A stretch of DNA of 64,000 nucleotides. Source: Candidatus Heimdallarchaeota archaeon (GTDB lineage: Archaea > Asgardarchaeota > Heimdallarchaeia > Heimdallarchaeales > Heimdallarchaeaceae). Below, piece by piece: positions 10,633 through 54,184 of the stretch. Within the stretch, counting starts at the first letter, position 1; each line of letters starts with the position of its first letter. Made by a program: the position numbers and the translations under genes. Location of the stretch: positions 32,001 through 96,000 of the forward strand of contig JAUVXV010000007.1 in NCBI GenBank assembly GCA_030603365.1. The letters run 5' to 3'. The notes below the pieces were generated by a model. That model worked only from the letters and a program-made list of their open reading frames with translations. It had not been told where the DNA came from and did no database searches.

Positions 10633-10715
10633 GAATGCAAGTAGGATTACTAAGCTAACTATGCAAAAATTAATAATGATTCTGAAGAATTTACCACATC
10701 TAAAAGTGAGAAAAA

Positions 10716-35186: not shown

Positions 35187-37247
35187 GTGAATATTGAAAG
35201 ATTAATAGATCATTCTGAAATAACAGAAGCTCTCAAGCAAATAGAGGAACAGCTAGAGAATGATAAACTTACTGAAGAAGAGCAATTAGATCTACTAATT
35301 TTTAAGAGCGATGCTACATGTTTGAGTGGAAAATGTGAAAAAGGATTAGAACAGTCTATCGATTTAGTTAATAAAACACGAAGAATTGGCAACTCGTTGC
35401 TTGAAATAAAAGCTTCACTCCAAAGAGCAACTATATTGAACAGATTAAGAAGATATGATGAATCTAAAACTATTTTGGAGGAGACATTTTTACTTTTTCA
35501 GAATCTAGCAAACAAAGATGAGGAGGAATATAAAAAGAACTTAGCTAAATGGTATTCACTGAATGGTGTATACTTACATCTTCAGAAACAGTATAATGAT
35601 GGTTTAGAAGAATATGAAGAAAGTCTTCAAATACGAAGGGAAATTGATTATAAACATGGCATTGCTGAGATTTTAGTTGCTAAAGGACATTCTTATCTGA
35701 AAAAATTGGATTTTGAAAGATATCGAGAGCTTAATGAAGAAGCATATGAAATTTTCAAATCAGAAGACAATAAGAGGATGATGGGTGTTGCTTTGATAAA
35801 TATAGGAAATTCTCACATCTATAAAGGAGATATGCACACTGCAATCAAAATAAATCTAGAAGTATTAGAAATTCGAAAACAAATGGGAAAACAAACAAAT
35901 CTGTTTTATACTAATGATCGATTAGGATACCAGTACTGGAGGATTGGAGATCTAGATAAAGCATTTGAGCATTGGAAGGAAGGTTATGCTTTAACTAAGG
36001 ACATGAAGGATGAAAGAGGTATTTATAGTAGTTTTAAGAGCTTTGGGCTATATTACTATGAGTTGGGAAATCTCGAAAAGTCATTAGAGTATCAATATAA
36101 AGCACTAGAAAAGGCAAGAGAGATAAATATTAAACGTGATGTAACTTACGCTATTGCTGAAAGATTAACAGTAATTGGATATATTTATCTAAGAATGGGT
36201 GAATATGAAAAAGCTCTGGCAAGTATTGAGAAAGGAAAAACCAACATACCTGAGAAATATCATGATTTTATAAGAGCTGAGAACACTAAAGCTTTTGGTA
36301 TTTATTATACAACAGTTGGAGATTTTGAGAAGGCAGAAAAATTTCTTAATGAAGCTATGAAATTTTATGAAACAAGCCAACGACCTTATGATATCTATGA
36401 AGTATTACATTATCTAGGAATAGTATTTCATCAGAGAAATGAAACTAACAAGGCAATTTCTGTCTTGAAAAGAAGTTTAGAAATGAGTCTTCAAATGCAA
36501 GATAAAGTAACAATAGCAACAAATCTTCTAGAATTAACAAAGATATATACTCAGCAGTTCGATCTAGAGAATGCTAGATTTTACCAATTACAACTCTCTG
36601 AATTAAGCTCTAGTATTCAGTTAGCAACTATAAGTCTAAACAGTAAGATTGCTGAAGCAACAGTCCTGAAATTAAGTGAAAACCAGAGAGATAGAATAAA
36701 ATCAGAGACCATTTTTGAACAGATTATAGAAGAAAAAGCTTTATGGCATTCTCAGAAAATTTATGCAATACTATGTCTTTGTGAACTCTTTATTGAAGAC
36801 TTCTCTCATGAGGAGGACAAAGGAATTCTACTCAGAATTAAAGAACTCGTTGAGAAACTTCTCACCATCTCAAAAAGCCAGAATTCACCATCCTTAACGT
36901 GTGAAACATATTGGTTGCAATCTCAATTATCGATGTTCGATTTTGATTCTAAAACAGCAAGGGAATTATTAACAAATGCCTTAGAACTAGCACAAAAAAG
37001 AGGTTTAACCCTTCTAGAAGATAAATATAAATCTAAACTTGAAACATTAAGTAGTTTTGTCGCAAGCTGGAAAAACTTCACTTCTAAAACTGCTTCAGTT
37101 TCTGAAATAATAGAACAAACAGAACTAGATAGTACCATAAACGGAATGAAGAGAAATGGATCTCTATTCATGCAAGAACTACACAAACATACAAGCAATA
37201 GCAAAAAGATTTTTTCGACGGAATTAGAATTGAAACAGAGTCATTAA
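35187..37247 (+). CDS. TPR-array protein (paralog lacking the C-terminal longin-like domain)
   Basis: Numerous TPR units; shared block LTCETYWLQSQLS...ARELLTNALELAQKRGL. Confidence 0.82.
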   Translation: MNIERLIDHSEITEALKQIEEQLENDKLTEEEQLDLLIFKSDATCLSGKCEKGLEQSIDLVNKTRRIGNSLLEIKASLQRATILNRLRRYDESKTILEETFLLFQNLANKDEEEYKKNLAKWYSLNGVYLHLQKQYNDGLEEYEESLQIRREIDYKHGIAEILVAKGHSYLKKLDFERYRELNEEAYEIFKSEDNKRMMGVALINIGNSHIYKGDMHTAIKINLEVLEIRKQMGKQTNLFYTNDRLGYQYWRIGDLDKAFEHWKEGYALTKDMKDERGIYSSFKSFGLYYYELGNLEKSLEYQYKALEKAREINIKRDVTYAIAERLTVIGYIYLRMGEYEKALASIEKGKTNIPEKYHDFIRAENTKAFGIYYTTVGDFEKAEKFLNEAMKFYETSQRPYDIYEVLHYLGIVFHQRNETNKAISVLKRSLEMSLQMQDKVTIATNLLELTKIYTQQFDLENARFYQLQLSELSSSIQLATISLNSKIAEATVLKLSENQRDRIKSETIFEQIIEEKALWHSQKIYAILCLCELFIEDFSHEEDKGILLRIKELVEKLLTISKSQNSPSLTCETYWLQSQLSMFDFDSKTARELLTNALELAQKRGLTLLEDKYKSKLETLSSFVASWKNFTSKTASVSEIIEQTELDSTINGMKRNGSLFMQELHKHTSNSKKIFSTELELKQSH

Positions 37248-38606: not shown

Positions 38607-40931
38607 TTGTCAACTTCATATAGCAGTTTATTTTCTAAAGCACAACAGCTTTATCGTGAGGGTCTCTATGCTGAAGTTGATGTCCAGTTATCTAATCTTG
38701 AAAAACTTACCGAAATTACAGAAGAAGAAAATAAAAAGATAAGTTTACTGAAACTTAAAAATTTGATAAAACAAAAGAAAAATGAAAAAGCTTTGAATTA
38801 TGCAGACTCATTGATTTCTAATTATACAGATAAGGATACTGAATTGGAAAAAGTAAAGGTAATGCTTCACATAATTGAGGTTCAGATGAATTTAAGAGAA
38901 TGGGAAGAATCGACTATAATTATTATTTCAGCTGAAAAAACGCTAACTAAATACTCAAAATCACAGGAAGATGATGTTTTAGATCTTAATGCTAGATTGG
39001 AGTATGTTAAAGGTTGGGAATTTCTTGGAAAAAATCTTTATGACAGAGCACTTGACCATCTGGAAAAAAGTCTTGAAATGTACAGGGAATTGGGGGATAA
39101 ATATAAGATAGCTTTAGCAATGCGTTTAATCGCAACCAATTTATTCTATCTTGGTGAATTTGAGAGCTCAAGAAATTTTTATGATACATGTTTAGAGATT
39201 TTTAAGAGCTACAAATCAAGAATGGAAATTGCATCAGTTTATTTTGGCATTGCAGGTATTCACTATAGACGAGGAGAACTGAATCAAGCTTTGGAAATTG
39301 CAAGTAAATCATTAGCAATACGAGAACAAACAGATGATCAATATGAAATTGCTGGTTCTGTTCAAGGAATCGCTTACATCTATAGTCACATGGGAGATTT
39401 GGACAAAGGATTAGAATACCTTCGAAGATGCAAAATGATCTATGAAAAACTTGGATTTAAGCATGATGTAGCAAAATGTCTCATGGACATTCATGGTAAT
39501 TTTCGTCAAAAAGGTGAATACGATAGAGCTCTTGCAACTATTTTTGACTACTATAGTTTGAAAAAAGAACTTAATGATGAAAGATGTGTAGGTATTGCTT
39601 ACGGATACATTGGAACGATCTATGAAATAAAAGGTGAATTTGATGAAGCAATAATCAACTACCAGAAAGCTCTCAAGATGTTAACTAATTTTGATGTTGT
39701 TGATTCGATTTCAGATGTTCATTATAATTTGGGGAATATTCTTCATAAGAAAGGTGAAAATGAAGAATCTATTAAGCATCATCTTCAGGCTCTAGAAACT
39801 CGAAAGAAGGGCTATGGAGGTAGAAGTCAAGGAGTACTTATTGCAAAATCTCTGAAAAGTTTAATTCAGATAAATTTAGATTTAGAACTTCCGAAAACTG
39901 CTGAGAAGTATTTTGAAGAGCTTAAGGAAGTAGAAAGACAAGTAGAGAACAAAATAGTTTATTATCTTTACAGGCTTTCAGAGGGTCTCATTCTTAAGAA
40001 CAAACCATTGGATGAGAAAAAGGAGAGGGCAGGGATCATTTTTGAAGAGTTAAGTAAAGATACTATAATTGACTATACACTAACAGTTGAAGCTCTCTTA
40101 AATTTAGCAGATATTTTATTGTGGAAATTAAGTAAATCTGAAAGAGAGGATATCCTAAAGGAAGTTAAGGACATAATACTGAATCTAGAAACGATAGCTT
40201 CGGAAAAGAACTCATATGCTTTGTTGGCTGAGACTTATTTCTTACATGCTCAACTATCATTGATAGAACTGGAAACAGAGCAAACTCAGGAATTATTAAC
40301 AAATGCATTACAAATTGCAGATGATAAGGGTTTAAACAAATTAGCAATCAAAATTTCAAATGAATATGATAATCTACTTGATAAGCTAGATAGATGGGAA
40401 GATTTTACATTAAAATTACCATCAATTGCTGAAAAAATGGAACTAACTCACATTGAAAAACAACTTAACAATGTGATAAAAGGTAGGATGACTATAGATG
40501 TTGTCCAAGAAAATGAACAACCCATTCTTTTCTTCATGTTAGATCATAATGAAAGAATTCTATATTCCGAGCAATTTGATTCAGGTCTTACTCAAGAAAG
40601 AATAGACAAAATATTGATCGATGTACATAAAAAAATAAAAAAAGAAGCTATTCTTGGGAAACTACATCGAGCAAGAATTCAAGAACTAAATTGTGTAATC
40701 AGAAGTGAATTTGGTGTGATCTTGTGCTATTTCTTCATTGGGAAATCTTATTCAGGATTGAAGAAAATTGAAAACTTAGTTGAATTAATAGAAAACAACA
40801 AAGATGTCAAGGAAAAAGTAGAAATAATTTCTTGTTCAGATCAATCTCTTAGTGTCAATGATAGAATAAAACTAACAGAGCTGCTCGATGAGGTTCTTCT
40901 TGTAAAGAATGGGGAGATTCTTAGTAGTTAA
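38607..40931 (+). CDS. TPR-array protein with C-terminal longin-like domain
   Basis: Close paralog of 4863-7160 (KLAIKISNEYD..L..L..WE.FTL.LPSIAEK.EL.HIE; ENEQPILFFML...LCYFFIGKSY). Confidence 0.82.
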   Translation: MSTSYSSLFSKAQQLYREGLYAEVDVQLSNLEKLTEITEEENKKISLLKLKNLIKQKKNEKALNYADSLISNYTDKDTELEKVKVMLHIIEVQMNLREWEESTIIIISAEKTLTKYSKSQEDDVLDLNARLEYVKGWEFLGKNLYDRALDHLEKSLEMYRELGDKYKIALAMRLIATNLFYLGEFESSRNFYDTCLEIFKSYKSRMEIASVYFGIAGIHYRRGELNQALEIASKSLAIREQTDDQYEIAGSVQGIAYIYSHMGDLDKGLEYLRRCKMIYEKLGFKHDVAKCLMDIHGNFRQKGEYDRALATIFDYYSLKKELNDERCVGIAYGYIGTIYEIKGEFDEAIINYQKALKMLTNFDVVDSISDVHYNLGNILHKKGENEESIKHHLQALETRKKGYGGRSQGVLIAKSLKSLIQINLDLELPKTAEKYFEELKEVERQVENKIVYYLYRLSEGLILKNKPLDEKKERAGIIFEELSKDTIIDYTLTVEALLNLADILLWKLSKSEREDILKEVKDIILNLETIASEKNSYALLAETYFLHAQLSLIELETEQTQELLTNALQIADDKGLNKLAIKISNEYDNLLDKLDRWEDFTLKLPSIAEKMELTHIEKQLNNVIKGRMTIDVVQENEQPILFFMLDHNERILYSEQFDSGLTQERIDKILIDVHKKIKKEAILGKLHRARIQELNCVIRSEFGVILCYFFIGKSYSGLKKIENLVELIENNKDVKEKVEIISCSDQSLSVNDRIKLTELLDEVLLVKNGEILSS

Positions 40932-40978: not shown

Positions 40979-42226
40979 ATGTATTTAATAAGTGAAATTA
41001 TGTTATATTTGACAGAGATGAGTAAGAAAATTAATCGTAATCTAATAATAACAGTGTCAATTATTACACTGATTTGTTCTATTTCTTTTTATCAGTTTCA
41101 AACAAATGGAAGTACTGAAACCACTAGTTTTACTACAGAAATAAAAGCATATACAGATCATGACCCTATTCAAATTCTATCGGATGAAAATTTTATAGAT
41201 TATGGTTTTGAAGGAGAAGGAACATATGATGAACCTTACTTAATTGAAAACTTAAGAATCATTAACTCCACACACAAAGGTATAGAGATAAATGAAACCT
41301 CAATGCATTTCATTATAAGAAATTGTTATATTGAAACTGATCAAAAAGGAATACTTGTAAGATTCGCTGCTAATTGGACAGTAAGAATTTACGATAATAT
41401 TCTAATTGATAACAATCTAGATGGAATAGTCGTTGCTAATACTCACCATTTCTCTATAGTGGGTAATGCAGGTACAGGGGATCACACCGCAATCAGAATC
41501 AATAATGTTTCTAATGGCTATATAGCTAATAATGAGCATATTGGTGGAGAAAACATAGACTTTCTTAGATCTGTAGGAACTCATCTAAGTAATACTAAAG
41601 ACACTGTTATTTACAATAACTACTTCGATAGTTTCAATAGAGGAATATACACAATTGAATGTAGCAACTTAACAATACAGCAAAATTATTGTGTGAACAG
41701 TAAAGAATATGCAGGATTGTATCTCTACTATTCTCATTTAAATCTAGTACTAAACAACACTTGCATATCTAATGTTGAAGCAGGAATTTTATTGTATAAG
41801 TCTAATTTTAACGTTATAAAATATAATAATATCTCGTTAAATGGAGTAATGGGTTTAGCTGCTACTCTTAGTGGATTAAATGTAATTTATCACAACGATT
41901 TTGTTGATAATGGATTTACTGGTAGTTATTCTTCCCAAGGATGGGATGATACTGGAGACAACCTTTGGTGTAATTTGGAATTAAAAGAGGGTAATTATTG
42001 GTCTGATTTAAACACAAATGTGTACCTTATTGATCCTGGATTCAATATAGATTTTTATCCTTTAGAATCACCAGTCTCTGGTGAAGTAATAGATCCAATA
42101 CTTGAACCTACAACACCCTATATTACAGAATATTCAACCTACATTCAAGTAATATTGCCTTTTGCTCTAATACTAGGTCTTGCAGTTTTTTACTCAAATA
42201 GAAGAAACAAGAAAAAAAATTATTGA
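40979..42226 (+). CDS. NosD-type parallel beta-helix surface protein with C-terminal anchor
   Basis: HDPIQILSDENF..GFEGEGT..EPYLIENL, IYHNDFVDN...GNYWSD...D.YPL, TM plus RRNKKK. Start likely at the second Met (41018). Confidence 0.85.
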   Translation: MYLISEIMLYLTEMSKKINRNLIITVSIITLICSISFYQFQTNGSTETTSFTTEIKAYTDHDPIQILSDENFIDYGFEGEGTYDEPYLIENLRIINSTHKGIEINETSMHFIIRNCYIETDQKGILVRFAANWTVRIYDNILIDNNLDGIVVANTHHFSIVGNAGTGDHTAIRINNVSNGYIANNEHIGGENIDFLRSVGTHLSNTKDTVIYNNYFDSFNRGIYTIECSNLTIQQNYCVNSKEYAGLYLYYSHLNLVLNNTCISNVEAGILLYKSNFNVIKYNNISLNGVMGLAATLSGLNVIYHNDFVDNGFTGSYSSQGWDDTGDNLWCNLELKEGNYWSDLNTNVYLIDPGFNIDFYPLESPVSGEVIDPILEPTTPYITEYSTYIQVILPFALILGLAVFYSNRRNKKKNY

Positions 42227-42440: not shown

Positions 42441-42634
42441 AGTAAATCTTGCAAGGATTTTATATTTCATTTCTTTTATTAAACATTTTATAAACTATGT
42501 TGAGAATATTGACCTTTTACATTTTCAAGGAATAACATTTTTTTTGTCATATATTTTTCAATGTCAAGAACGATTGAGTTTTAAAGAGTTCTATCGTTTT
42601 GTTTTTCGTTAGAAAAAGTATTCTTGGGATTATA

Positions 42635-44341
42635 ATGACAAAGAAATTATTGATTGTTGGTGGAGTAGCTGGAGGTGCATCAACAGCTGCAAGATACAGA
42701 CGACTCAATGAATTCGCAGAAATCACTATTCTTGAAAGAGGGCCATATGTTTCTTTTGCGAATTGTGGATTACCCTACTATGTTGGTGGAGTAATAGAAG
42801 ATAAAGAGAATTTAGAATTAGTTACACCTCAAGTTTTTCTAGAAAGATTCAATATTGATGTTCGTATAAACAACGAAGCTATTTCAATTGATAGAGTGAC
42901 CAAAACAGTAAAGGTAAAAAATCTAGAAGATGATAATGAATTCAACCTAGAGTATGATACTTTAGTCTTGTCACCAGGAGCTGAACCTATTAAACCTCCT
43001 TTCAAAGGTATGGATAATATTCCTGTTTTTACTCTACGTACTATTCCTGATACACTGCAAATTGTTGAATATATTGAGACAAATAAACCTAAGAGAGCTA
43101 CAATTATTGGAGGAGGGTTCATTGGATTAGAGATGGCTGAAAACCTTCATGCAAAAGGTATAGAGATAACAATCATCGAATTGATGGATCAAGTAATGGT
43201 TACTCTAGATAGAGAAATGGCTCAATATGTACATTACGAATTGTATCGTAATGATGTTGAGTTAGTTCTAGGAGATGGTGTGAATTCATTTGAAAAGGAT
43301 GAGAGCGGACAAGTGTTTGTGATAACTCAGAGTGGCAGAAAAGTTTCCACTGATATAGTTGTTCTGGCGATAGGTGTCCGTCCGGAATCAAAATTAGCTA
43401 AAGAGTGTGGTCTTGAACTTGGCGAGAGAGGTCATATAGTAGTAAATAAATTCATGCAGACATCAGACCCTCATATCTATGCAGTAGGTGATGTAGTTCA
43501 GGTTTCAAACTATATAACTCAAGAAAAAATAGCTGTTCCTCTAGCTGGTCCAGCAAATAAACAAGGGAGGATAGCTGCTAACAATATTGCGGGAGAAACT
43601 GAAGAATATGAAGGTGTTCTTGCTGCAGCTGTTGTGAAGGTTTTTGATTTAACAGTCGCTCAAGTAGGATTAAATGAGAAGATGCTCAAAAACATGAACA
43701 TAGAATATGAAAAAGTATACCTTCACCCTATGAACCATTCTGGTTACTATCCTGGAGGAAATAAATTAGCACCTAAATTGCTTTTTGATAAGAAAAATGG
43801 CAAAATTTTAGGAGCTCAAGTGCTAGGAGGAGATGGAGCAGAAAAGAGAATTGATGTTATTTCTACAGTTATACACTTTGGTGGTACAGTTTTTGACTTA
43901 GAAAAATTAGAATTAACTTATGCTCCCCCATTTGGCTCTGCTAGAGATCCTGTAAACATGGCAGGTCATATAGCTGCAAATATGGTTAAAGGAAAGATGA
44001 AACCTTATCATTGGCATGATGTTGATGATCTAGTTGAGAAGGGTTCCTTTTTGATAGATGTAAGAAGAGACGATGAATTTGAAATAATCACGATTAAAGG
44101 TGCAATTCATATTTCAGAATTTGAGATGAGACAAAGATTAGACGAATTACCAAAAGATAAACCAATTTATGCTTTCTGTCAAGAAGGCTTTAGAGCTTAT
44201 ATTTCGCAAATGAATCTTCTGCAAAGGAACTTTGATGTTCAAAACCTAATTGGTGGAATCAAGACATATATTATAGCAACAGCTACACAAGAAGAATTGA
44301 AAAAAATGGCAAAGAACCCTCCCTATAGAATAATATTCTAA
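42635..44341 (+). CDS. CoA-disulfide / persulfide reductase with C-terminal rhodanese domain
   Basis: GGVAGG, SFANCGLPY redox Cys, IGGGFIGLEMAE, TSDPHIYAVGD, YAPPF, rhodanese IDVR...FCQEGFRA...NL.GG. Confidence 0.93.
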   Translation: MTKKLLIVGGVAGGASTAARYRRLNEFAEITILERGPYVSFANCGLPYYVGGVIEDKENLELVTPQVFLERFNIDVRINNEAISIDRVTKTVKVKNLEDDNEFNLEYDTLVLSPGAEPIKPPFKGMDNIPVFTLRTIPDTLQIVEYIETNKPKRATIIGGGFIGLEMAENLHAKGIEITIIELMDQVMVTLDREMAQYVHYELYRNDVELVLGDGVNSFEKDESGQVFVITQSGRKVSTDIVVLAIGVRPESKLAKECGLELGERGHIVVNKFMQTSDPHIYAVGDVVQVSNYITQEKIAVPLAGPANKQGRIAANNIAGETEEYEGVLAAAVVKVFDLTVAQVGLNEKMLKNMNIEYEKVYLHPMNHSGYYPGGNKLAPKLLFDKKNGKILGAQVLGGDGAEKRIDVISTVIHFGGTVFDLEKLELTYAPPFGSARDPVNMAGHIAANMVKGKMKPYHWHDVDDLVEKGSFLIDVRRDDEFEIITIKGAIHISEFEMRQRLDELPKDKPIYAFCQEGFRAYISQMNLLQRNFDVQNLIGGIKTYIIATATQEELKKMAKNPPYRIIF

Positions 44342-44345
44342 TCTA

Positions 44346-45485
44346 TCAATATAACTTGGGAATCATTTTGAATTTAGCAATATCACAGTAATCTTCCCAG
44401 AGTTTTCCGTATTTCTTCCGACATCTTTTATCATCTCTCCATGCTCGGTGAATAAGAAGAATTAACAAAGAACCAGGAAGTATCAAAGGTATTGCAGAGA
44501 TTAATCCTGTGGTTAATACAATTACTAAATAAGTAAGTATTTCACCAGTATAGTTCAGCTTTCTTCCAATTCCCCAAAACCCTGAGATTAGAATTTTTCC
44601 TTCCAAAGATTTAGCCTGTTTAAACCATATTTTGGCTTTTGGGTTCTTTTTGAATCTGTACTTTTGAATATTTGAAGCCCTAAAAATCCAAAGAGAGATA
44701 AGATAAGCAACACATAAAAAGATTATAACAAAATTACTGAAAGCGATTTCTTGAGTAATAATGAACCATCCACCTATAGAATAGAAAAATGGCACATAAA
44801 CTGTATCTCCCCAAGCAAGCATAAATCCAAAATTCTCAGACATTACATCCCAAGTAGAGAGCATAAACTCTTCGAATATGTAATGTGTAAAAAGATACCC
44901 CCACCAAAATGCTTGGTATAACCACATCTGAGGAAGAACATACCCTAGATTATTCAGCTGAGTGAATAGAAAACTCCAGTTTAAGATTGACAAACCTATC
45001 AATGAGGGCTGATATGCAAACATTTTCAGATCTACTCCCCACCATGTAGGATTCAATTCAGAACCAAACCAGATGTCATGGAGAATGCCCTTCAAACCTT
45101 TTCTTCTATCCTTTCCTTGTTTTCTTCTTCCTAAGAAGAATAGTAAAATTGTCCACAATACAGCATAACAATTAGCCACAATTAGAAGCGACCAAAATCG
45201 TATAGTAATATACTCAAGATTCCAAATGAAGGACGATACTTTCTCGTAGAGTACAAAAACAAGTAAAGCTACAAAAGTGAAAAGAAGAAATAAAATAAGA
45301 CCAGTAAGTTTATACTCTTTTTTGGTTCCATTTTTTAAGATTTCACCTATTCCTTTGATTCCAGGGAGAAATTTAGCTCCTAGAAACATTATAACAATAA
45401 ATATGGTAATCATTGCTAAAGCTGTTAGAAGGTTCCAAGGAGTAACAGGAAGCATTAATTCTAGAATACCAGCCATCTTATTCAC
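44346..45485 (-). CDS. ERG4/ERG24 / lamin-B-receptor family sterol reductase homologue
   Basis: DIWFGSELNP, DLKMF, E..LSTWD..SENFGFMLAWGD..VPFFYS, SNIQKYRF, ILISGFWGIGRKLNYTGE, LLIHRAWRDDKRCRKKYG..WEDYC......IP.LY. Confidence 0.92.
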   Translation of the reverse strand: MNKMAGILELMLPVTPWNLLTALAMITIFIVIMFLGAKFLPGIKGIGEILKNGTKKEYKLTGLILFLLFTFVALLVFVLYEKVSSFIWNLEYITIRFWSLLIVANCYAVLWTILLFFLGRRKQGKDRRKGLKGILHDIWFGSELNPTWWGVDLKMFAYQPSLIGLSILNWSFLFTQLNNLGYVLPQMWLYQAFWWGYLFTHYIFEEFMLSTWDVMSENFGFMLAWGDTVYVPFFYSIGGWFIITQEIAFSNFVIIFLCVAYLISLWIFRASNIQKYRFKKNPKAKIWFKQAKSLEGKILISGFWGIGRKLNYTGEILTYLVIVLTTGLISAIPLILPGSLLILLIHRAWRDDKRCRKKYGKLWEDYCDIAKFKMIPKLY

Positions 45486-45800
45486 CTAATAGATAACTAA
45501 TCTTTCAGAGCTTGCTTAAAATTGTTATCCATGATATCTGTTCTTACTATTATAGCATTAACCTCAATTTCACTTATAAGAAACGAATGAGCTACTTTAT
45601 TACAAAGTCATGAAGTTTGTAAGCCAAAGAAGGGTGATAAAATAAAATTGGAAACTGCTCAAGAAGTTTGTTTAGAGATGAGAGAAGGAAAAGCTAAAGG
45701 GATATGGAAAATGCAATGCTACTTCTGCAATAAAATAGCTAAGAACAATCCCAAAAAATACTGTTATTACAATAAACCTAATTATTCTGGTTGTAACATC

Positions 45801-47235
45801 ATGATGAGTTATTGTCATCTTGTCATATTGACAAGAACAGTTAAATTTCTTTCTTAGAGGTCATCACATAGTACATGAGAGGTGTTCTATGCTCACTCTG
45901 AGGGGATACATCACGTATCCTCCTACCCCGTTCACACTCCTTTTAGGAAGCGCTTTCGGATCGCTTTTAACTAAAATGTTGTAAGCAGCATTCACATCAG
46001 CATTGATGAGGTGTCCTTGAGCAGATTTGAACAATCCCCGTTTGACTCTTTTTCCTGCATACTTCTTTCTAAATTGCGGGAATTCGTTATCAAGAAAACT
46101 ATTTTTAGAAGTGTATTGCTCAGGAATGAGTTCAACCTTTATCCCCCTCTCTGCTGCTTTATATTTCAGCATGTTGATAATCCGCATAAAGGGGATGGAA
46201 ACAAACATTTGGGTGATCTTTTTCCAGAAATGCACTCCTTGCTTCCACTTCTCGTTATAGCCGATGATCACCTCATGAAGCTCTCGTTCCACCCACAGTT
46301 CTACCAAGTAATGGCTGAGCTTATGGATAGCATCTTTGAGTTTCTTCCTCCACTTCTCTCGAAGCGTGTAGAAAACTGTTCCGTACTTCAATTTGTTCTT
46401 CGCTTTCAGCTGCTGTCTTTGCTGTTGCACATATTGTTCTCGTAATTGTGTTTGTTTTTTCAGATAATACTGGGTAATTGATTTTATTCCTTTCCCCTCG
46501 TCCTTGATAACAATCGGCTGATTCCCGAGGTTATCCACAAAGGTTACAAGGTTATGCATCCCTAAATCGATAGCTCCTTTTCTTCTAGGTCGTCTCCTTA
46601 GTTTGGGCATATTCTTCATATAAACTAGTTCGATGGTATATCCTACTCTTCTAGGAACTATTCTCACTTCCCGCAGTTTGGTACCAGCAGTTAATCTTGT
46701 TTTATAATGAAAACCTACTTTCTTAGGCAACACTAGCCAGCTATTCTTAATCCTTGCTTGTTGGTTGGTGAAGATTGCTACCACCTCCCCATCTTTGGTT
46801 TTGTAATTGGGTGGATGGGGCATGGCAAAAAATGCTGCAGGATTGTTTTTCCACTCCTTCAATGCTTGAAAGTACCCTTTCCAATTCCTAGATAGAAGTT
46901 TAAGCGTGTGTTGTGCAGTGTGAGCAGGAAGCACCTTGTAGCACTCTTCTCCTTTAAGGAGAGTGTTAAGGTCGGAGTAGAAGAGTAGTGTTTTTGTCTT
47001 CTTCAGAGAAGTTTTGATCAGAAAATTCGCTCGATTATAGAGATTTTTGACTCGATGACAGAGCTTGCTTAACGCAGGATGATAAGATACTTCTATACAC
47101 TCTACACGTAAAGCTTGCACCATCAGTCTTTTACCTAGAATTTCCTATAAAAACTCCAGTAATATCTCGTTCCAAAGTGTCTTTCAAAGTGATCTCTTGT
47201 ACACATAAGATGACAGGATGACAAAATTTCTTTAT
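45801..47235 (-). mobile_element. Non-autonomous tnpB-only insertion element (IS607-like or IS200/IS605-like), about 1.43 kb, no tnpA
   Basis: AT at both junctions; inverted 15-mers TTGTCATCTTGTCAT (45812-26) and ATGACAGGATGACAA (47210-24), each 9 bp from the AT; hairpin TCTTGTCA-tat-TGACAAGA (45818-36); visibly more GC-rich than the flanks. Confidence 0.85.
45864..47123 (-). CDS. tnpB: RNA-guided endonuclease TnpB
   Basis: KNLYN.AN, W..YF, P.Y, EVRIVP, RuvC-I AIDLG, HKLS, IIGYN..WKQ, EQYTSK.SFLD, KRGLF, RuvC-III INADVNAAYNI. Full length, no internal stops. Confidence 0.95.
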   Translation of the reverse strand: MVQALRVECIEVSYHPALSKLCHRVKNLYNRANFLIKTSLKKTKTLLFYSDLNTLLKGEECYKVLPAHTAQHTLKLLSRNWKGYFQALKEWKNNPAAFFAMPHPPNYKTKDGEVVAIFTNQQARIKNSWLVLPKKVGFHYKTRLTAGTKLREVRIVPRRVGYTIELVYMKNMPKLRRRPRRKGAIDLGMHNLVTFVDNLGNQPIVIKDEGKGIKSITQYYLKKQTQLREQYVQQQRQQLKAKNKLKYGTVFYTLREKWRKKLKDAIHKLSHYLVELWVERELHEVIIGYNEKWKQGVHFWKKITQMFVSIPFMRIINMLKYKAAERGIKVELIPEQYTSKNSFLDNEFPQFRKKYAGKRVKRGLFKSAQGHLINADVNAAYNILVKSDPKALPKRSVNGVGGYVMYPLRVSIEHLSCTM

Positions 47236-47307: not shown

Positions 47308-48501
47308 ATGAGAATTAGATATTGTATTGATGAGAATAAATTAAAGGTTAGAATGATGATAAAAAAAACTTCAATTATGCTTCTTCTAGTTTTCACATCT
47401 TTAGTGATTAATCAGAATTCAATTAGAGGAGAGATTGAGCTCGATTTAATTCCTATAGATTTTAAATTTGTTCATGCAACAAGATCGGATTTAGGAGATC
47501 AAGTTCATGTAGAATTTAATGATACGCTCATGCCAGATAACCAAGTTTATGGTCCTGATGATGAAGTTTGGTTCAGTTTTACTATGGATGTTGCCGAATT
47601 CAGGTTGGATCCTCAACAAGAAGTTGATTATAGCCAGGCAGATTATTGGTTCTTTGCCGAAGAAGACGAATTTGGTGTTTATAATGAGACTAGATTCCAA
47701 GGTGTTCTTAATTTATATCTAGATAGAAATGATTTTGGTTTATCAAATATTCATAACTTCGGTGGAACAATAAACACAACTCAGGATTTATTACAATTCT
47801 ATTTAACTCCTGGTTGGCATTTACTAACAGTTTTTGCAGCTGAATACGTTTCTGATCCAACAAGAACTGTAATGTATTGGCAAACATCAAAGGATGAGAA
47901 ATGGTTCTATATTTCTGCAGATACGACAAGTGAACCCCCTGTAAGAGAAAGCTCAGAAGACACTGTTACAGTTAAAGCTAATCCTCTTAATAACACTGAA
48001 TGGAATCCTTCATTTGATTGGAACTTTCTTAATATCTGGCCACGAGCTGAGAGAACAGATGGAACATCTATAGAACAAACATTAAATCAAGAAGGACAAG
48101 TTGCTAGAGTAGAAGCCAATTATAATGTAACTACAAGCTCATTATGGCTAAATGAAACAAATGAGGAAGGAAGACCACAGGCAGTTTATTATGATTCTAC
48201 ACATATGGGTGAGGGGGGCATTTTTTGGTGGATAAATGATGGACCTGTTACAAGTGAACTTGAAACAAGTTTCGAGCTCAACAAAGGTGTTAACTTCATT
48301 TACTTTGCAGCTGTAGGTTTTAGAGTTTACTTCACATTGGTCTATGATCCATTACTTCTACCTAGAGCAGATGTAGATAGTAATGTGTTTATTGTAGAGA
48401 ATAATATTCCACTTCCATCACCATTTGGATTCGAAAGTTTTGTATTAGCTTTAGCAGTTTTTGCAACAATTAGTCTCTATGTAAAGAGGAAAAGAAATTA
48501 A
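47308..48501 (+). CDS. Secreted surface protein with PGF-CTERM-like C-terminal anchor
   Basis: Signal peptide after MMIKK (likely start 47353), beta-rich body, PSPFGFESFVLALAVFATISLYVKRKRN. Confidence 0.75.
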   Translation: MRIRYCIDENKLKVRMMIKKTSIMLLLVFTSLVINQNSIRGEIELDLIPIDFKFVHATRSDLGDQVHVEFNDTLMPDNQVYGPDDEVWFSFTMDVAEFRLDPQQEVDYSQADYWFFAEEDEFGVYNETRFQGVLNLYLDRNDFGLSNIHNFGGTINTTQDLLQFYLTPGWHLLTVFAAEYVSDPTRTVMYWQTSKDEKWFYISADTTSEPPVRESSEDTVTVKANPLNNTEWNPSFDWNFLNIWPRAERTDGTSIEQTLNQEGQVARVEANYNVTTSSLWLNETNEEGRPQAVYYDSTHMGEGGIFWWINDGPVTSELETSFELNKGVNFIYFAAVGFRVYFTLVYDPLLLPRADVDSNVFIVENNIPLPSPFGFESFVLALAVFATISLYVKRKRN

Positions 48502-48823: not shown

Positions 48824-49960
48824 TTGAAAATCATAGTTTTAGGTGCAGGTTTAGTAGGAAACATAATTGCTTTGGACTTAGCGGAAAATCCTGAAAACAG
48901 AGTTGCTGTTGCAGATATAAATCAAAATGCACTCAACCAACTGAGTGAAAAAGCTGACATCCAAACAGTATTTGCGGATTTATCAAATAAAGACATGATT
49001 AAAGACATAATAGAAGAGTATGACTTAGTAATTGGTGCGCTTCCAGGTTTTATGGGTTATGAAACACTAAAAACTGTAATTGAAGCTGGAAAGAACACTA
49101 TTGATATTTCCTTCTTTGAAGAAGATCCCTTTAGCTTAGATGAACTAGCCAAAGAGAATAATGTGACAGCTGTAGTTGATTGCGGTGTTGCTCCTGGATT
49201 AAGTAATATTGTTCTTGGTCATGTTGATAATCTCCTAGATACTACAGAGAATTTTTTATGCTATGTTGGTGGATTACCTCAAGTAAGAGAATGGCCATTC
49301 GAGTATAAAGCACCATTTTCCCCGACAGATATAATTGAAGAATATACACGGTTAGCTCGATATATAGAAGATAGAGAAGTCGTTATCAAACCAGCTCTTT
49401 CAGATCCTGAATTAATAGAATTTCCAGAAATTGGAACTCTTGAAGCTTTCAATACAGATGGATTAAGAACACTCTTGAGAACCATGGATATTCCTAATAT
49501 GAAAGAAAAAACTATGAGATATCCAGGACATATTGAAAAGATGAGAATGTTAAGAGAAACAGGATTTTTCGATAAAGAACCTATAGAAATCAATGGCAAG
49601 AAAATAATACCTTTAGAGTTGACTTCTAGGCTTCTTTTTAAAAGCTGGAAAATGGAGAAAGGAGATAAAGATCTTACAGTTATGAGAATCATAGTAGAAG
49701 GGACAAAAGATGACAAAAATCTAAGATATGTTTATGATATGTTAGATATGTACGATGAGGAAAAAGAAACAATTTCAATGGCCAGAACAACTGGTTATAC
49801 TTGTACAGCAACAGCTGAACTTGTTGGAAAAGGAGCTTTTAATAAAAAAGGCATAATTCCTCCTGAAATTGTAGGTAAGAATCTCGAAGCATATGAATCA
49901 ATAATAGATTATCTCAAGGAAAGAAAAGTAGTTCTCCATGAAAGAGTAGAAGAGATTTAA
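48824..49960 (+). CDS. Saccharopine dehydrogenase / lysine 6-dehydrogenase family
   Basis: VLGAGLVG, ALPGFMG, DISF, DCGVAPGLSN, VGGLP, EAFNTDGL.TL, EKTMRYPGH, SMARTTGY. Confidence 0.92.
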   Translation: MKIIVLGAGLVGNIIALDLAENPENRVAVADINQNALNQLSEKADIQTVFADLSNKDMIKDIIEEYDLVIGALPGFMGYETLKTVIEAGKNTIDISFFEEDPFSLDELAKENNVTAVVDCGVAPGLSNIVLGHVDNLLDTTENFLCYVGGLPQVREWPFEYKAPFSPTDIIEEYTRLARYIEDREVVIKPALSDPELIEFPEIGTLEAFNTDGLRTLLRTMDIPNMKEKTMRYPGHIEKMRMLRETGFFDKEPIEINGKKIIPLELTSRLLFKSWKMEKGDKDLTVMRIIVEGTKDDKNLRYVYDMLDMYDEEKETISMARTTGYTCTATAELVGKGAFNKKGIIPPEIVGKNLEAYESIIDYLKERKVVLHERVEEI

Positions 49961-50016
49961 TTACTTTTTTACCAAAAACATTTAACACTTTCCTTTTATT
50001 ATTATCTTAGTAGATA

Positions 50017-51075
50017 ATGAATTCAGTGTCAAATCCTTGTTCTATGGTTAAACAAGGTTTTCCCGCAGGTTCTTGTTTGGTTCAGACTAGTTCTTTAGAG
50101 AAAGGAAGAGCTTGTGATTTAACTTTAAGAATTAATGAAGAAGGGGGTTACGAGAGAGTGATAAAATCTATCCATCTTTCTAGACCTGAAGACTATCTCT
50201 CAATTTACCAAAGTGGATGTAATCATACATGCAAGAAATGCCATTCTCATGAGTTCAGTAAGCATGTTAATGGAGATTGGATGAGTAGTGATGATATTGC
50301 AAATAAAGCGATAGAATACGCAAGACATGTTACTGTTTATGAACCTAAAGAACGAGCAACCAGCTGGCATGCCCAACAGCTTTGTAAACATTGTGGATCA
50401 TGTGTCCTTACTGGTGAGTACTCTCCAAAGTGCCCAAGAAAACTAAAGAAGGAACAAATAGTGTTGAGCCCTCAAGGTTTTGGACCAGCAAGAAACATAA
50501 TTGCTTTTACTGGTGGAGACATAATGTGTAAACCAGAATTCTATACTCAAACAGCTGAAAAAATCAAAGCTGAAGAGGAGAATCTATTGATATTATTGGA
50601 GACTAATGGGTATGGTTTAACACCAAAGAATCTAGAGAAATTCGCTTCAGCTGGTATAGATTCCTTCTGGTTGGATATTAAAGCATATTCTGAAAGTATA
50701 TATCAAAATCTCTGCGGAACAACAAACAAACATATTTTAGAAAGTGTTCAAAATATCAAAGATTTAGGGTTTACACTCGAAATATTAACTCTTTTTATTC
50801 CTTCAATTGTAGAAACGGACGAACATAAGAAAATAGCTAAACTAATTGTTGATGTAGATGCAACTATTCCTACAACTTTACTTGCTTTCTTTCCTTGTTT
50901 TGAACTTAACAGTCCTTTATACAGGGGACCTAATGTTTCTGAAATGGCTAAAAGTTTTGAGATTATGAAAGAGATAGGAGTAAAAAACCTTCGAATGGGT
51001 AATTTAGGGGTTTTCATGAAGAATCAGAAAGATATGGATTTTCTCGAAACAAAATTTGGGAAAAATTTCTACTAA
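50017..51075 (+). CDS. Radical SAM protein (PFL-activase-like) with Cys-rich insertion
   Basis: GCNHTCKKCHS (CxxxCxxC), AFTGGD, LETNG, DIKA, extra CKHCGSC...CP. Confidence 0.88.
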   Translation: MNSVSNPCSMVKQGFPAGSCLVQTSSLEKGRACDLTLRINEEGGYERVIKSIHLSRPEDYLSIYQSGCNHTCKKCHSHEFSKHVNGDWMSSDDIANKAIEYARHVTVYEPKERATSWHAQQLCKHCGSCVLTGEYSPKCPRKLKKEQIVLSPQGFGPARNIIAFTGGDIMCKPEFYTQTAEKIKAEEENLLILLETNGYGLTPKNLEKFASAGIDSFWLDIKAYSESIYQNLCGTTNKHILESVQNIKDLGFTLEILTLFIPSIVETDEHKKIAKLIVDVDATIPTTLLAFFPCFELNSPLYRGPNVSEMAKSFEIMKEIGVKNLRMGNLGVFMKNQKDMDFLETKFGKNFY

Positions 51076-51111
51076 ATTGTAAAACAAATTGACAAAACAT
51101 ATAAATTCTTA

Positions 51112-52509
51112 ATGAACTCTTCATTGAGTAGCATGATTAAGCCATTAACAGCGATTCTTATTGGGGCTGGAGAGAGGGGGGCTGATGTTTTTGGAGAATA
51201 CGCTTTGAGAAACCCAGACGAAATAAGATTTATTGCAGTAGCAGAACCGCTGGATAAACGAAGAAATTCTTTTTCATCAAAACATTTTATCGAACAAAAA
51301 AATTGTTTTAAAAGTTGGGAACAATTATTTGAAAAGGACAAGTTTGCAGATGTTGTCATAGTAACAACACAAGATCAACTACATTTTCAACCAGCTATTT
51401 TAGCAATGAAAAAAGGATATGATGTTCTCTTAGAAAAACCAATGGCCACTACTTTAGAGGAATGTAAGGAATTGGTAAATGTTTCTGAAAAGACTAGTCA
51501 AATTCTGCAAATAGGTCATGTTTTACGATATACTCCTTTTTTCTCTTCTATCAACAACCTGATAGTTTCAGGGAAGATTGGTGATTTAGTAAATATTTCT
51601 CTCAGAGAAAATGTAGCTTCTTTCCACTATTCCCATTCTTTCGCTAGAGGTAACTGGCATAATAGAGATAAATCAAGTCCCATGATCCTAGCTAAATCTT
51701 GTCATGATCTAGATATTCTATTCTGGTATGCAAACTCCCGTGCAAGCAAAATAAGTTCTTTTGGCTCTCAAGCTCATTTTGGGAAGAGTAACATGCCTGA
51801 AGGAGCTCCAGAATTTTGTATTGAAGGATGTCCCATTTCTAAGAGTTGTCTATATCATGCACCTCGGATCTATCTAGATATAATTCCACTACTTCAGATT
51901 GCTAAACAAGGAAGTAAAGGATTTACAAGATTCATTGCTAAAGCAGTTTTGAGATTTCCTAGGTTGAAAAATATCCCCCCTTTCACCAAAATACGAGATT
52001 ATTCGGGTTGGCCTGTAAGTGCAATATCAGATGATTTGTCAGTTGAAGGAAAGAAGAAAGCATTGCAATCAAACAATTATGGTAGGTGTGTTTATAGAAT
52101 CACTGATCATGATACAGTAGATCATCAAGTTGTAAATGTAGAATTTGAAAACAAAGTAACGGCTACTTTCACTATGCAGGGTTTTTCTCATGAAGAAGGT
52201 AGAACATTAAGAATAGATGGAACAAAAGGCACAATAATTGGTGAATTTCTACATTCAGGAGATAAAATCACTTTCAATGATTCTTTGACTGGAAAGGAAG
52301 AAGTTATTCGTAAAACTGGAATGTCAGATGGTCATGGTGGTGGAGATGAAGGTATAATGAAAGCTTTCATTAGAAATGTTGGTGGGGAGGATAGAACAAA
52401 AGTTTTAACAGATGCAAGAGCATCTTTAGAATCTCATCTTATGGCGTTTGCAGCAGATATTTCAAGATTAGAAGAAAGGGTAGTTAAGATGGATGAAATG
52501 AGAAAATAA
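51112..52509 (+). CDS. Gfo/Idh/MocA family oxidoreductase
   Basis: IGAGERG, VAVAEP, LLEKPMA, GHVLRY, HSFARGNW, LAKSCHDLD, GHGGGD. Start probably the second Met. Confidence 0.92.
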   Translation: MNSSLSSMIKPLTAILIGAGERGADVFGEYALRNPDEIRFIAVAEPLDKRRNSFSSKHFIEQKNCFKSWEQLFEKDKFADVVIVTTQDQLHFQPAILAMKKGYDVLLEKPMATTLEECKELVNVSEKTSQILQIGHVLRYTPFFSSINNLIVSGKIGDLVNISLRENVASFHYSHSFARGNWHNRDKSSPMILAKSCHDLDILFWYANSRASKISSFGSQAHFGKSNMPEGAPEFCIEGCPISKSCLYHAPRIYLDIIPLLQIAKQGSKGFTRFIAKAVLRFPRLKNIPPFTKIRDYSGWPVSAISDDLSVEGKKKALQSNNYGRCVYRITDHDTVDHQVVNVEFENKVTATFTMQGFSHEEGRTLRIDGTKGTIIGEFLHSGDKITFNDSLTGKEEVIRKTGMSDGHGGGDEGIMKAFIRNVGGEDRTKVLTDARASLESHLMAFAADISRLEERVVKMDEMRK

Positions 52510-52571
52510 AGGATTAGTTTGACGATAAATACAAATAACCAAAAGAAATTATAGTTATAAGGGAAGAATGC

Positions 52572-53183
52572 TTGATGATACAAAATATAATTATAACACA
52601 TCATAGTGGGCTACCTCTTTTTGGACGATCGTTAATGTGCCATATAGGAGTGCATTGTGCAGATTTATCAAAGGATAACACATTTACAGATGAAACTTTG
52701 TTGAATTCTGCTCTATTAAATGCAATGCTTATTTTTGATCAAGCAAATCCTAATGATTTCCATGAATTTGAAATGGAAAAAGCAAAAACGCTAACATTTC
52801 CCACAGAAAAAATTACTGTTATAATGTATGCAGATCCAGAAGACAATTTAGAACAATATAAGAACAGATTAAGATTGTTTGCTGACTTGTTTACAAAGCA
52901 ATATGGGTATCTTCTAGATGATTTCTCCGGAGATGTCAGCCCATTTGGAGATTTTCAGAATATTATTGTAAAGGAAGGCTTACTTGAAGAAGGAGAAAGA
53001 TTCAGGAAAAATTGTGTTGAGTGTACTTATGACAAACATTGTGCATTTAGAATCACTGTTGCCGCACCCAATAAAACATTTAAAGAGATTTTTGATTCTA
53101 TTTATCCAAGTAGCATCTTCAAGAAAATGTGGTTGATTCTTATTGGTATGTTTAAGCCAAAATATTTTCCATTATATTCTTAA
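52572..53183 (+). CDS. Longin-like domain protein with Cys/His motifs
   Basis: IQNIIITHHSGLPLFGRS...L.SALL.AM..F...F..QY...L..F.GDVSPF..F pattern of Asgard longins; CHIGVHC and CVEC....HC. Confidence 0.65.
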   Translation: MMIQNIIITHHSGLPLFGRSLMCHIGVHCADLSKDNTFTDETLLNSALLNAMLIFDQANPNDFHEFEMEKAKTLTFPTEKITVIMYADPEDNLEQYKNRLRLFADLFTKQYGYLLDDFSGDVSPFGDFQNIIVKEGLLEEGERFRKNCVECTYDKHCAFRITVAAPNKTFKEIFDSIYPSSIFKKMWLILIGMFKPKYFPLYS

Positions 53184-54184
53184 TTAGCTTTATTCCTTTT
53201 GTTAGTTTTCTTATTCTTTCTATAATAAGGAGAACGAAATATAAGAAATAATTGTGCTAATGGACTAACCAAACCTATGAGGAATCTACGGAATTTTATA
53301 CGACTTTCGAACTCTTTTGCAAAGCCTTCCATCGTATATCTTTGATATTGTAAAATTCCTTGAGAATCGTCAGTATACAACCAGTCTGTGTGAAACCAAT
53401 CTTTATCATGTTGAGGTTCTTTAAAACATTCTCTGGGGATAGGACCAACTCCAAAAGATTTTAACAATCTTGTTATATATTCACCAGCAAGCATTTGACA
53501 TTTTTCTCCCCCTGCTAAATTCATTATTTTGTGATTGATATCTACATTAATTGCATTCACACATGCTAACCCAACATCCCAAGTATGAATAAATTCTAAT
53601 CGTTGATCGAAAGGTACTTCAAACATCAGAGAAGGTATTTTCATTGGCATTCTGAGTGAAGGAACAGCTGTTAATCGCAAAATTATCCAATCTAAGGAAC
53701 TTGCTTGAAGAATTTTTTCCATTTCCCATTTCTGAAAAGCATAAAGATCATGAGAGATAGGTACTATTTCATCTGTAACATATCTTGGGGGAGGCATATG
53801 CATTTTAGAGCCATAGATAGCTAAAGAACTAGTAAAGATGATTTTAGGTTTCTTCTCAAGTTTTTCAGCTGCATCAACAAGATTCTTCATACCCCCTGCA
53901 TTAACCTCGGTAGCATAATCTGGATTTTCATCAGCTTCGGGAGGAATAATTGCTGCTAGATGGATTACATAATCCACGTCTTGTACGATTCTTTCTACAT
54001 CTGTTTTGTTTCGAATATCTCCCCAAATAGTCTTAAAATTACCTTTCTTTGACATGATTTTTTGAATTTTTTTAGTATGTTTAGTCTTCTTATCAAAACA
54101 TCTAACATCATATCCACGTTCTAATAGAAGTCCTAGTGTACTCTCACCTACATTCCCAAATGGACCTGTTAATAAAATCTTCAT
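53180..54184 (-). CDS. Extended SDR (NAD-dependent epimerase / 3-beta-HSD-like)
   Basis: LLTGPFGNVG, WGDI, VIHLAAIIPP, FTSS.A.YG, Y...K (YAFQK). Confidence 0.88.
   Translation of the reverse strand: MKILLTGPFGNVGESTLGLLLERGYDVRCFDKKTKHTKKIQKIMSKKGNFKTIWGDIRNKTDVERIVQDVDYVIHLAAIIPPEADENPDYATEVNAGGMKNLVDAAEKLEKKPKIIFTSSLAIYGSKMHMPPPRYVTDEIVPISHDLYAFQKWEMEKILQASSLDWIILRLTAVPSLRMPMKIPSLMFEVPFDQRLEFIHTWDVGLACVNAINVDINHKIMNLAGGEKCQMLAGEYITRLLKSFGVGPIPRECFKEPQHDKDWFHTDWLYTDDSQGILQYQRYTMEGFAKEFESRIKFRRFLIGLVSPLAQLFLIFRSPYYRKNKKTNKRNKAN

Follow-up and report, generated by a model that had tools for sequence, protein, structure and literature searches.

The window, i.e. the whole stretch of 64,000 nucleotides analysed here, comprises positions 32001–96000 of contig 11 of a Candidatus Heimdallarchaeota genome (3.65 Mb on 17 contigs, 89 % complete, 3.4 % estimated contamination) and has an even GC content of 0.30–0.37. 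On its minus strand an unbroken frame of 379 codons extends over 44346–45485, in agreement with a preliminary description of the sequence, which had announced an intact 379-aa frame without naming the strand. The frame encodes a membrane reductase and lies between a gene for a CoA-disulfide-reductase-like flavoprotein with a rhodanese domain (CoADR-rhodanese) on the left and a TnpB gene and the gene of a putative surface protein on the right (Table 1). Translation from the GTG at 45485 results in 379 aa, translation from the ATG at 45476 in 376 aa. Since this GTG is part of a Shine-Dalgarno-like motif and the N-termini of the orthologues correspond to the methionine encoded by the ATG, the latter is probably the true start and the protein most likely has 376 aa.

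Table 1 Features at the reductase locus (window coordinates)
Feature	Position	Strand	Basis or remark
CoA-disulfide-reductase-like flavoprotein with C-terminal rhodanese domain (left flank)	42599..44341	+	Pfam
ERG4/ERG24-family (short-form, C-14-reductase-type) membrane reductase, CDS	44346..45476	-	Profile, structure-sequence and model comparison
Shine-Dalgarno-like motif GGTG	45483..45486	-	6 nt 5' of ATG 45476; includes the listed start GTG 45485
TnpB / IS605 OrfB-type gene, between the reductase and the right-flank genes	45864..47123	-	Pfam PF07282, PF01385
397-aa predicted secreted/surface protein with C-terminal anchor (right flank)	47308..48501	+	No Pfam match

The CoADR-rhodanese and the reductase genes are convergent and their stop codons are 4 bp apart. 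Homologous loci were taken from ten genomes of the same genus, which are Heimdallarchaeota MAGs of different studies. The CoADR-rhodanese gene adjoins the reductase in 8/10 of these sister genomes (76–84 % identity), and the gene of the 397-aa surface protein adjoins it directly in three sister loci (L018, L019, L022). Within the stretch fetched, five sister loci also contain part or all of a block of genes for a saccharopine-dehydrogenase-like, a radical SAM, a Gfo/Idh/MocA, a 203-aa unknown and an SDR protein. In base composition (GC 0.338, GC3 0.295) the reductase gene resembles its neighbours (about 0.33 and 0.2–0.3). The TnpB gene is unlike them (GC 0.41, GC3 0.44) and is missing between the reductase and the 397-aa genes in L018, L019 and L022. 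It is a later, separate insertion outside the conserved arrangement, and its absence from the sister loci together with its different GC content rules it out as the vehicle of a transfer.

Two species without the reductase (G019 and G030) possess the same colinear locus without this gene. In G019 a spacer of 143 bp separates the CoADR gene from the homologue of the 397-aa protein gene, beyond which lie the saccharopine-dehydrogenase-like, radical SAM, Gfo/Idh/MocA, 203-aa and SDR genes. There is thus one insertion site for the reductase gene, with the CoADR-rhodanese and the 397-aa surface protein genes as its two edges. The identity of the CoADR orthologues, which is 76–84 % among the genomes holding the reductase and at most 69 % in the non-holders, fits one gain of the reductase at the base of a subgroup; loss elsewhere is formally possible. 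A functional link to the CoADR-rhodanese, to the 397-aa surface protein or to the saccharopine-dehydrogenase/radical-SAM/Gfo-Idh-MocA/SDR cluster is not supported, since the same genes are colinear in the reductase-less G019 and most of them in G030, and since the CoADR and the reductase genes point towards each other and are not co-transcribed. Conserved neighbours pointing to a substrate were found neither in the window nor at the sister loci.

The closest proteins are named Candidatus Heimdallarchaeota, and a scan of species-representative genomes led to Heimdallarchaeota MAGs of several studies, including AB_125, at 68–82 % identity, so that the archaeal host assumed in the preliminary description is borne out by named sister genomes. 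Examination of the contig context for contamination revealed conserved flanks and a host-like GC content; because the synteny is conserved in 10 independently assembled MAGs, the gene is native and not a contaminant. That the contig is of bacterial or eukaryotic origin or was mis-binned could be suspected from the MAG-like assembly with its 3.4 % estimated contamination and from the adjoining TnpB element, but it is next to impossible, as the contig has a length of at least 96 kb with the gene located more than 40 kb into the window, both flanks are colinear with 10 other Heimdallarchaeota MAGs of different studies at similar divergence, the GC content differs strongly from Myxococcota values, the branching of the gene tree is well resolved within the genus and the CoADR identities separate holders from non-holders.

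Family, fold and active site

The protein matches the Pfam profile PF01222 (ERG4_ERG24) with an E-value of 4.5e-61 and 207 bits, far above the curated cut-off of 27, over profile positions 71–432 of 432; the aligned region includes the C-terminal, catalytic half and the greater part of the domain. NCBIfam profiles did not match the reductase. Its best solved relative in a sequence search is MaSR1 (PDB 4QUV, E 8e-45). The assignment to the ERG4/ERG24 family, already proposed in the preliminary description, is thus correct, and all four motifs quoted in its favour are present in the translation: FGSELNP, FGFMLAWGD, LISGFWGIGRKLNYTGE and HRAWRDDKRCRKKYGKLWEDYC.

An AlphaFold2 model calculated from an alignment of 88 sequences reached a pLDDT of 95.4 and a pTM of 0.92. 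In a Foldseek comparison it was superimposed on 4QUV over nearly the full length (TM 0.83/0.81, rmsd 2.9 Å, 376 columns), and the reductase is accordingly predicted to adopt the polytopic helical membrane fold of MaSR1. The structural runners-up, steroid 5-alpha-reductases of the SRD5A family, were far weaker matches.

The active-site residues were mapped by a HMMER alignment to MaSR1, whose catalytic and cofactor residues have been assigned previously (PMC12489058; PMC4951196). The predicted catalytic Tyr241 of MaSR1 corresponds to Y197 of the archaeal protein, the NADPH-contacting Asn359 (LBR N547) to N311 and Arg395 of the NADPH pocket (LBR R583) to R347; all three are invariant among the 88 sequences, and the archaeal protein thus retains the NADPH-pocket residues and the predicted catalytic Tyr of the family. 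At the position of the predicted catalytic Asp363 (yeast D374) the carboxylate is retained as E315. Glu is found here in 6/6 archaeal and 70/72 short-form bacterial sequences; eukaryotic and long-form proteins carry Asp. Only four positions conserved to at least 90 % in the bacterial short forms show changes specific for the Heimdall proteins, namely A173L/M, G288F, L298I and R373K. The alignment suggests no remodelling of the active site in the archaeal reductase.

The short-form group at about 50 % identity consists of several hundred bacterial proteins of ~370 aa, mostly from Myxococcota and filamentous cyanobacteria. At 72 bacterial loci the neighbours within 8 kb were examined. The commonest conserved neighbour is a cytochrome P450 (40/72 loci), often located only 7–30 bp away, and a Rieske/KshA_C oxygenase of the SdmA type and ERG2 were found at 18/72 and 13/72 loci, respectively. 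The nearest bacterial relatives of the archaeal clade (L074 and L053) sit in such sterol-type clusters. Enhygromyxa salina and Minicystis rosea, both of which make cholesterol (PMC10202945; PMC12004948), possess exactly two family members each, the second one falling in the DHCR7 clade. From the adjacency of the P450 and from this paralogue count, the short-form bacterial clade is most likely the C-14 reductase acting after CYP51. Nested in this P450-adjacent clade, the archaeal protein would be an orthologue of such enzymes.

Phylogenetic origin of the archaeal gene

The identity to the window's reductase is 65–82 % for Heimdall proteins, about 50 % for bacterial proteins and 29–36 % for eukaryotic delta14-sterol reductases. 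Two trees were calculated, one with FastTree from 198 sequences and one with IQ-TREE (LG+C20 PMSF) from 74 sequences with the DHCR7-like clade as outgroup; only few of the tips carry names. Both agree on the placement of the archaeal proteins. In the IQ-TREE tree the Heimdall sequences form one shallow clade (support 100/99) inside a clade of Nannocystaceae, Polyangia and cyanobacteria (100/99), which is itself part of the wider short-form bacterial clade (96/94). The nearest relatives are two MAGs, one of Myxococcales and one proteobacterial, whose branching order is unsettled in the tree. The Heimdall stem branch is not unusually long in this tree; the IQ-TREE run flagged an unusual amino-acid composition of the Heimdall sequences, which can disturb the placement.

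The eukaryotic C-14 reductases are split into two groups, both outside the bacterial short-form clade. Those of plants and amoebozoans are sister to the short-form bacteria together with a small divergent clade which includes a Monosiga protein and a second paralogue of Plesiocystis. The opisthokont ERG24/LBR proteins group with a long-form myxobacterial protein. These two groups echo the description of ERG24 as the exception with regard to eukaryotic monophyly (PMC8237579).

Alternative placements were compared by AU tests on 45 sequences with constrained iqtree2 searches under LG+F+G4, in which the constrained trees came from fast or shortened searches with a model simpler than LG+C20. A bacterial short-form clade excluding the archaea was rejected (delta lnL 49.5, p-AU 0.002–0.005), as were groupings of the archaea with the plant-type eukaryotic enzymes (delta lnL 172, p-AU about 1e-82 or lower) and with opisthokont ERG24/LBR (delta lnL 285, p-AU 1e-7 to 6e-6). 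According to this nesting the transfer went from bacteria to archaea.

The distribution was determined by a scan of 400 genomes of the phylum with the PF01222 profile. Full-length matches were confined to one genus, in which they occurred in 11/25 genomes. All other matches in the phylum were weak and limited to the last ~90 profile positions. A second match in the window's own genome (G000:C13) belongs to a PEMT-superfamily protein; by analogy, the weak C-terminal matches across the phylum probably do as well.

The preliminary description had left the origin open between a horizontal acquisition and kinship with the ancestral form of the eukaryotic enzyme. The first part stands, as the gene is nested in a clade of Myxococcota and cyanobacteria. 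The second, by which the archaeal gene would be the ancestor or sister of eukaryotic ERG24/LBR/DHCR7 and mark an archaeal contribution to eukaryotic sterol synthesis, is refuted by the very test named in that description, a bacterial nesting combined with a patchy distribution among Asgard archaea. In its favour are the host, since Heimdallarchaeia is the archaeal class usually placed closest to the eukaryotes, and the sister relationship between the entire bacterial short-form clade and the plant and amoebozoan C-14 reductases. However, the archaeal proteins lie several well-supported nodes deep within bacteria, both eukaryotic groupings are rejected by the AU tests, the identity to eukaryotic proteins (29–36 %) is far below that to bacterial ones (about 50 %), and the patchy distribution in Asgard archaea, with one genus among 400 genomes, disposes of an ancestral gene. 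As a late, genus-level import taken from sterol-making bacteria, the gene is uninformative on the origin of the eukaryotic enzyme.

Orphan context and possible substrate

In the own genome (89 % complete) no SQHop (squalene-hopene/oxidosqualene) cyclase, squalene epoxidase or squalene/phytoene synthase was found, nor were P450, KshA_C (SdmA-type), FA_hydroxylase (ERG3/ERG25 type) and EBP; ERG2 was likewise not found, in a search without positive control. The statement of the preliminary description that the window contains neither a cyclase nor a squalene epoxidase gene is thus right and can be extended to the whole assembly, in which the search for other sterol genes yielded none. P450 is missing in 25/25 genomes of the genus. 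A real cyclase is also missing in these 25 genomes, five of which (G019, G021, G022, G028, G030) show weak partial matches of ~120 residues. These may represent the Asgard class II cyclases known to make halimadienyl lipids (bioRxiv 10.1101/2025.02.07.637177). Only G022 carries the reductase as well. Because the other four cyclase-like genomes lack it, the two genes are not partners, and a link of the reductase to the diterpenoid (halimadienyl) cyclases was rejected. No supply pathway for delta8,14-sterols (squalene synthase, epoxidase, oxidosqualene cyclase, CYP51) was detected, which makes the reductase an orphan in these archaea; a completeness of 89 % falls short of proof, though 25 genomes agree.

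Pairwise dN/dS values of the archaeal orthologues are 0.05–0.16, including pairs with unsaturated dS. The reductase gene is vertically inherited in its native location and under purifying selection. It could still be a decaying relic of a transfer without current function, for which one may cite the missing pathway partners and the fact that 2/11 copies are broken, the one in G039 split into two frames by a frame break and the one in G022 present as two pieces on different contigs. This is very improbable, as the gene is intact in at least nine genomes differing by up to 32 % in protein sequence, the dN/dS values are low and the predicted catalytic Tyr and the NADPH-pocket Asn and Arg are retained. 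Pseudogenisation, like contamination, is effectively excluded.

Family, fold and key residues of the protein are established, as are the native position of the gene, its descent from bacteria, its narrow distribution, the selection acting on it and the lack of the pathway. We consider it likely that the gene is an orphan bacterial-derived sterol-type reductase, captured singly, maintained by selection and acting on an exogenous sterol-like lipid. Its product would be a functional NADPH-dependent membrane C=C reductase with ten helices from the short-form bacterial branch of ERG4/ERG24. In Myxococcota and cyanobacteria this donor branch would reduce the delta14 double bond left by CYP51-type demethylation. 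From such a bacterium the single gene would have moved, without its pathway partners, to the ancestor of a subgroup of the AB_125 genus and would have been inserted between the CoADR-rhodanese and surface-protein genes. It would then have taken on the base composition of the host and been inherited vertically under purifying selection. Mechanistically, the conserved Tyr (Y197) is expected to protonate the double bond and NADPH to give the hydride, and the substrate may be a sterol or a sterol-like polycyclic lipid from the surroundings of the cell.

Given that the active site is unchanged in comparison to the bacterial enzymes, the most economical assumption is that the archaeal enzyme keeps the bacterial role and reduces, with NADPH, a ring double bond of a sterol-type lipid. 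Since the archaeon is devoid of a sterol pathway, this lipid would have to be external, and the modification of scavenged sterols proposed in the preliminary description is a possible form of this. Taken by itself, an exogenous sterol-like substrate has chances a little short of even. Free delta8,14-sterols are rare outside the producing cells, and an environmental substrate of the C-14 type is not obvious. A further point against the preferred reading is the Glu in place of the predicted catalytic Asp, which the archaeal protein has in common with its whole clade. Somewhat less probable is the broader view that some Heimdallarchaeia acquire sterols, or polycyclic lipids resembling them, from their bacterial or eukaryotic neighbours and remodel them with the captured myxobacterial reductase.

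The main rival is a recruitment of the enzyme to an endogenous non-sterol isoprenoid such as a polyprenol or dolichol, a quinone side chain or a polycyclic diterpenoid of the halimadienyl type. The genus lacks a sterol pathway and the gene is nevertheless under purifying selection, so some substrate must be available. The related SRD5A-family membrane reductases, to which the next structural matches belong, include polyprenol reductases. Furthermore, Asgard archaea make cyclic diterpenoids (bioRxiv 10.1101/2025.02.07.637177) and weak cyclase-like matches exist in the genus. Against this recruitment, neither the active site nor, apart from four lineage-specific substitutions, the positions conserved in the bacterial sterol-cluster enzymes have changed, and the stem branch is not unusually long. 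In addition, cyclase-like gene and reductase do not co-occur except in G022, and an isoprenoid gene is never a conserved neighbour. A non-sterol substrate is therefore quite unlikely, and an external sterol-like lipid remains the preferred reading.

Significance and comparison with known systems

Sterols are a hallmark of eukaryotic membranes. Current reviews describe Asgard archaea as lacking a sterol pathway (PMC13037920), primary papers do so as well, and among the publications searched for a sterol reductase in Asgard or Heimdall archaea none reports the gene. The protein itself falls into a known family and, within it, into a known bacterial subclade, and is not unusual there; new are the host and the orphan context. 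The tracing of eukaryotic sterol genes to Myxococcota (PMC8237579) is unchanged by the archaeal reductase, because the latter is a late import into one genus and not an ancestor. It demonstrates that a Myxococcota-like gene of the sterol pathway can be fixed and selected in a Heimdall archaeon without the rest of the pathway, and it raises the question of whether these sediment archaea handle exogenous sterols. Uptake and remodelling, if true, would represent the first case of a sterol metabolism among Archaea and a living example of the flow of Myxococcota lipid genes into the archaeal class closest to eukaryotes. For surveys on eukaryogenesis it is a caution that a 'eukaryote-type' gene in Asgard archaea can be a recent transfer from bacteria.

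Most similar to the archaeal protein are the short-form reductases (~360–380 aa) of Myxococcota (Enhygromyxa salina, Plesiocystis pacifica, Nannocystis, Minicystis rosea, Sandaracinus) and of cyanobacteria (Calothrix, Rivularia, Hormoscilla, Nostoc), with which it shares 44–54 % identity from end to end, the overall length, the Glu at the position of MaSR1 Asp363 and all family-invariant residues. The bacterial genes adjoin those of a CYP51-type P450, an SdmA-like Rieske oxygenase and ERG2 in organisms possessing a cyclase, whereas the archaeal gene resides in an Asgard host with none of these partners nearby or in the genome.

MaSR1, the delta14-sterol reductase of Methylotuvimicrobium (Methylomicrobium) alcaliphilum (4QUV), has the same fold and the conserved Tyr241, Asn359 and Arg395. 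However, its identity in the structural alignment is about 30 %, its N-terminus is ~50 residues longer, it has Asp363 in place of the archaeal Glu315, and it is part of the sterol pathway of a methanotroph.

The eukaryotic C-14 reductases (ERG24, D14SR of the FACKEL type, TM7SF2 and the C-terminal domain of LBR) resemble the archaeal protein in Pfam family, signature motifs and predicted mechanism, and the plant-type enzymes also in their length of ~369 aa. They differ by the low identity of 29–36 %, by their separate clades and by the rejection of a common grouping in the AU tests; the N-terminal lamin/chromatin-binding domain of LBR is absent from the archaeal reductase. The DHCR7/ERG4 branch belongs to the same family and fold class, but with 24–27 % identity, as determined for the second paralogues of E. 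salina and M. rosea, it forms a separate clade serving as outgroup.

Eukaryotic C-14 reductases and their bacterial relatives

In both trees (FastTree, 198 sequences; IQ-TREE LG+C20 PMSF, 74 sequences) the eukaryotic C-14 sterol reductases fall into two separate groups. The sister group of the plant/amoebozoan type consists of the short-form bacterial clade (reductases of about 360–380 aa) and a small divergent clade, and a 432-aa myxobacterial form clusters with opisthokont ERG24/LBR, again in both trees. The two-way split suggests two different bacterial affinities of the eukaryotic enzymes. In a Sandaracinus/Polyangiaceae subclade a methyltransferase of the CMAS family (cyclopropane-synthase type) follows the reductase gene after 10–120 bp, in the place of a P450. 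Reductase and methyltransferase may form an uncharacterised sterol-modifying pair.

Gene neighbourhood in the window

Only in the window's own genome does a TnpB gene separate the reductase gene from the 397-aa gene, which encodes a predicted secreted/surface protein. The GC content (0.41) and GC3 (0.44) of the TnpB gene are clearly above those of the surroundings. The sister genome G026 has a copy with 71 % identity about 4 kb from the reductase gene (locus L019). Beyond the 397-aa gene lies a five-gene block whose colinearity is kept across the genus, with or without the reductase gene, and whose SDR epimerase has an additional, weaker 3-beta-HSD match. The block resembles a cluster for the modification of sugars or polyols.

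Three large ORFs in the window gave no Pfam match at E 1e-5. Genes for MalT-like TPR proteins and NosD/beta-helix paralogues are dispersed over the window; in sister genomes beta-helix genes form tandem arrays adjoining the CoADR (flavoprotein-rhodanese) gene.

Features in the window (coordinates without prefix) and in other genomes and loci
Feature	Position	Strand	Details
TnpB / IS605 OrfB-type gene	45864-47123	-	PF07282 + PF01385
Five-gene block	48824-54184		saccharopine-dehydrogenase-like, radical SAM, Gfo/Idh/MocA oxidoreductase, 203-aa unknown, SDR epimerase
Large ORF	16067-17650	+	527 aa
Large ORF	26504-28144	+	546 aa
Large ORF	28907-33286	+	1459 aa
Large MalT-like TPR proteins	4863-7160, 35187-37247, 38607-40931		three
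NosD/right-handed-beta-helix paralogues	10716-12047, 40979-42226, 54481-55743		three
Four treble-clef zinc-finger repeats	19268-20488	-	PF23477, E 9e-62
PEMT-superfamily membrane protein	G000:C13:361128-361373; L002 1177-2034		285 aa
SQHop_cyclase_C-like ORF (example)	G022:C17:1585-1965
Bacterial reductase + CMAS-family methyltransferase	L033, L039, L047, L050, L066, L087		reductase ~10001-11100 in most

Weak family matches in the genus and phylum

The weak second PF01222 match in the window's genome stems from a PEMT-superfamily protein, and similar weak C-terminal matches occur in 257 of the 400 genomes of the phylum. In five genomes of the genus (G019, G021, G022, G028, G030), mostly ones which have no reductase gene, ORFs about 365 aa long match SQHop_cyclase_C weakly and only in part. 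They may represent class II diterpenoid (halimadienyl) cyclases as recently reported from Asgard archaea.
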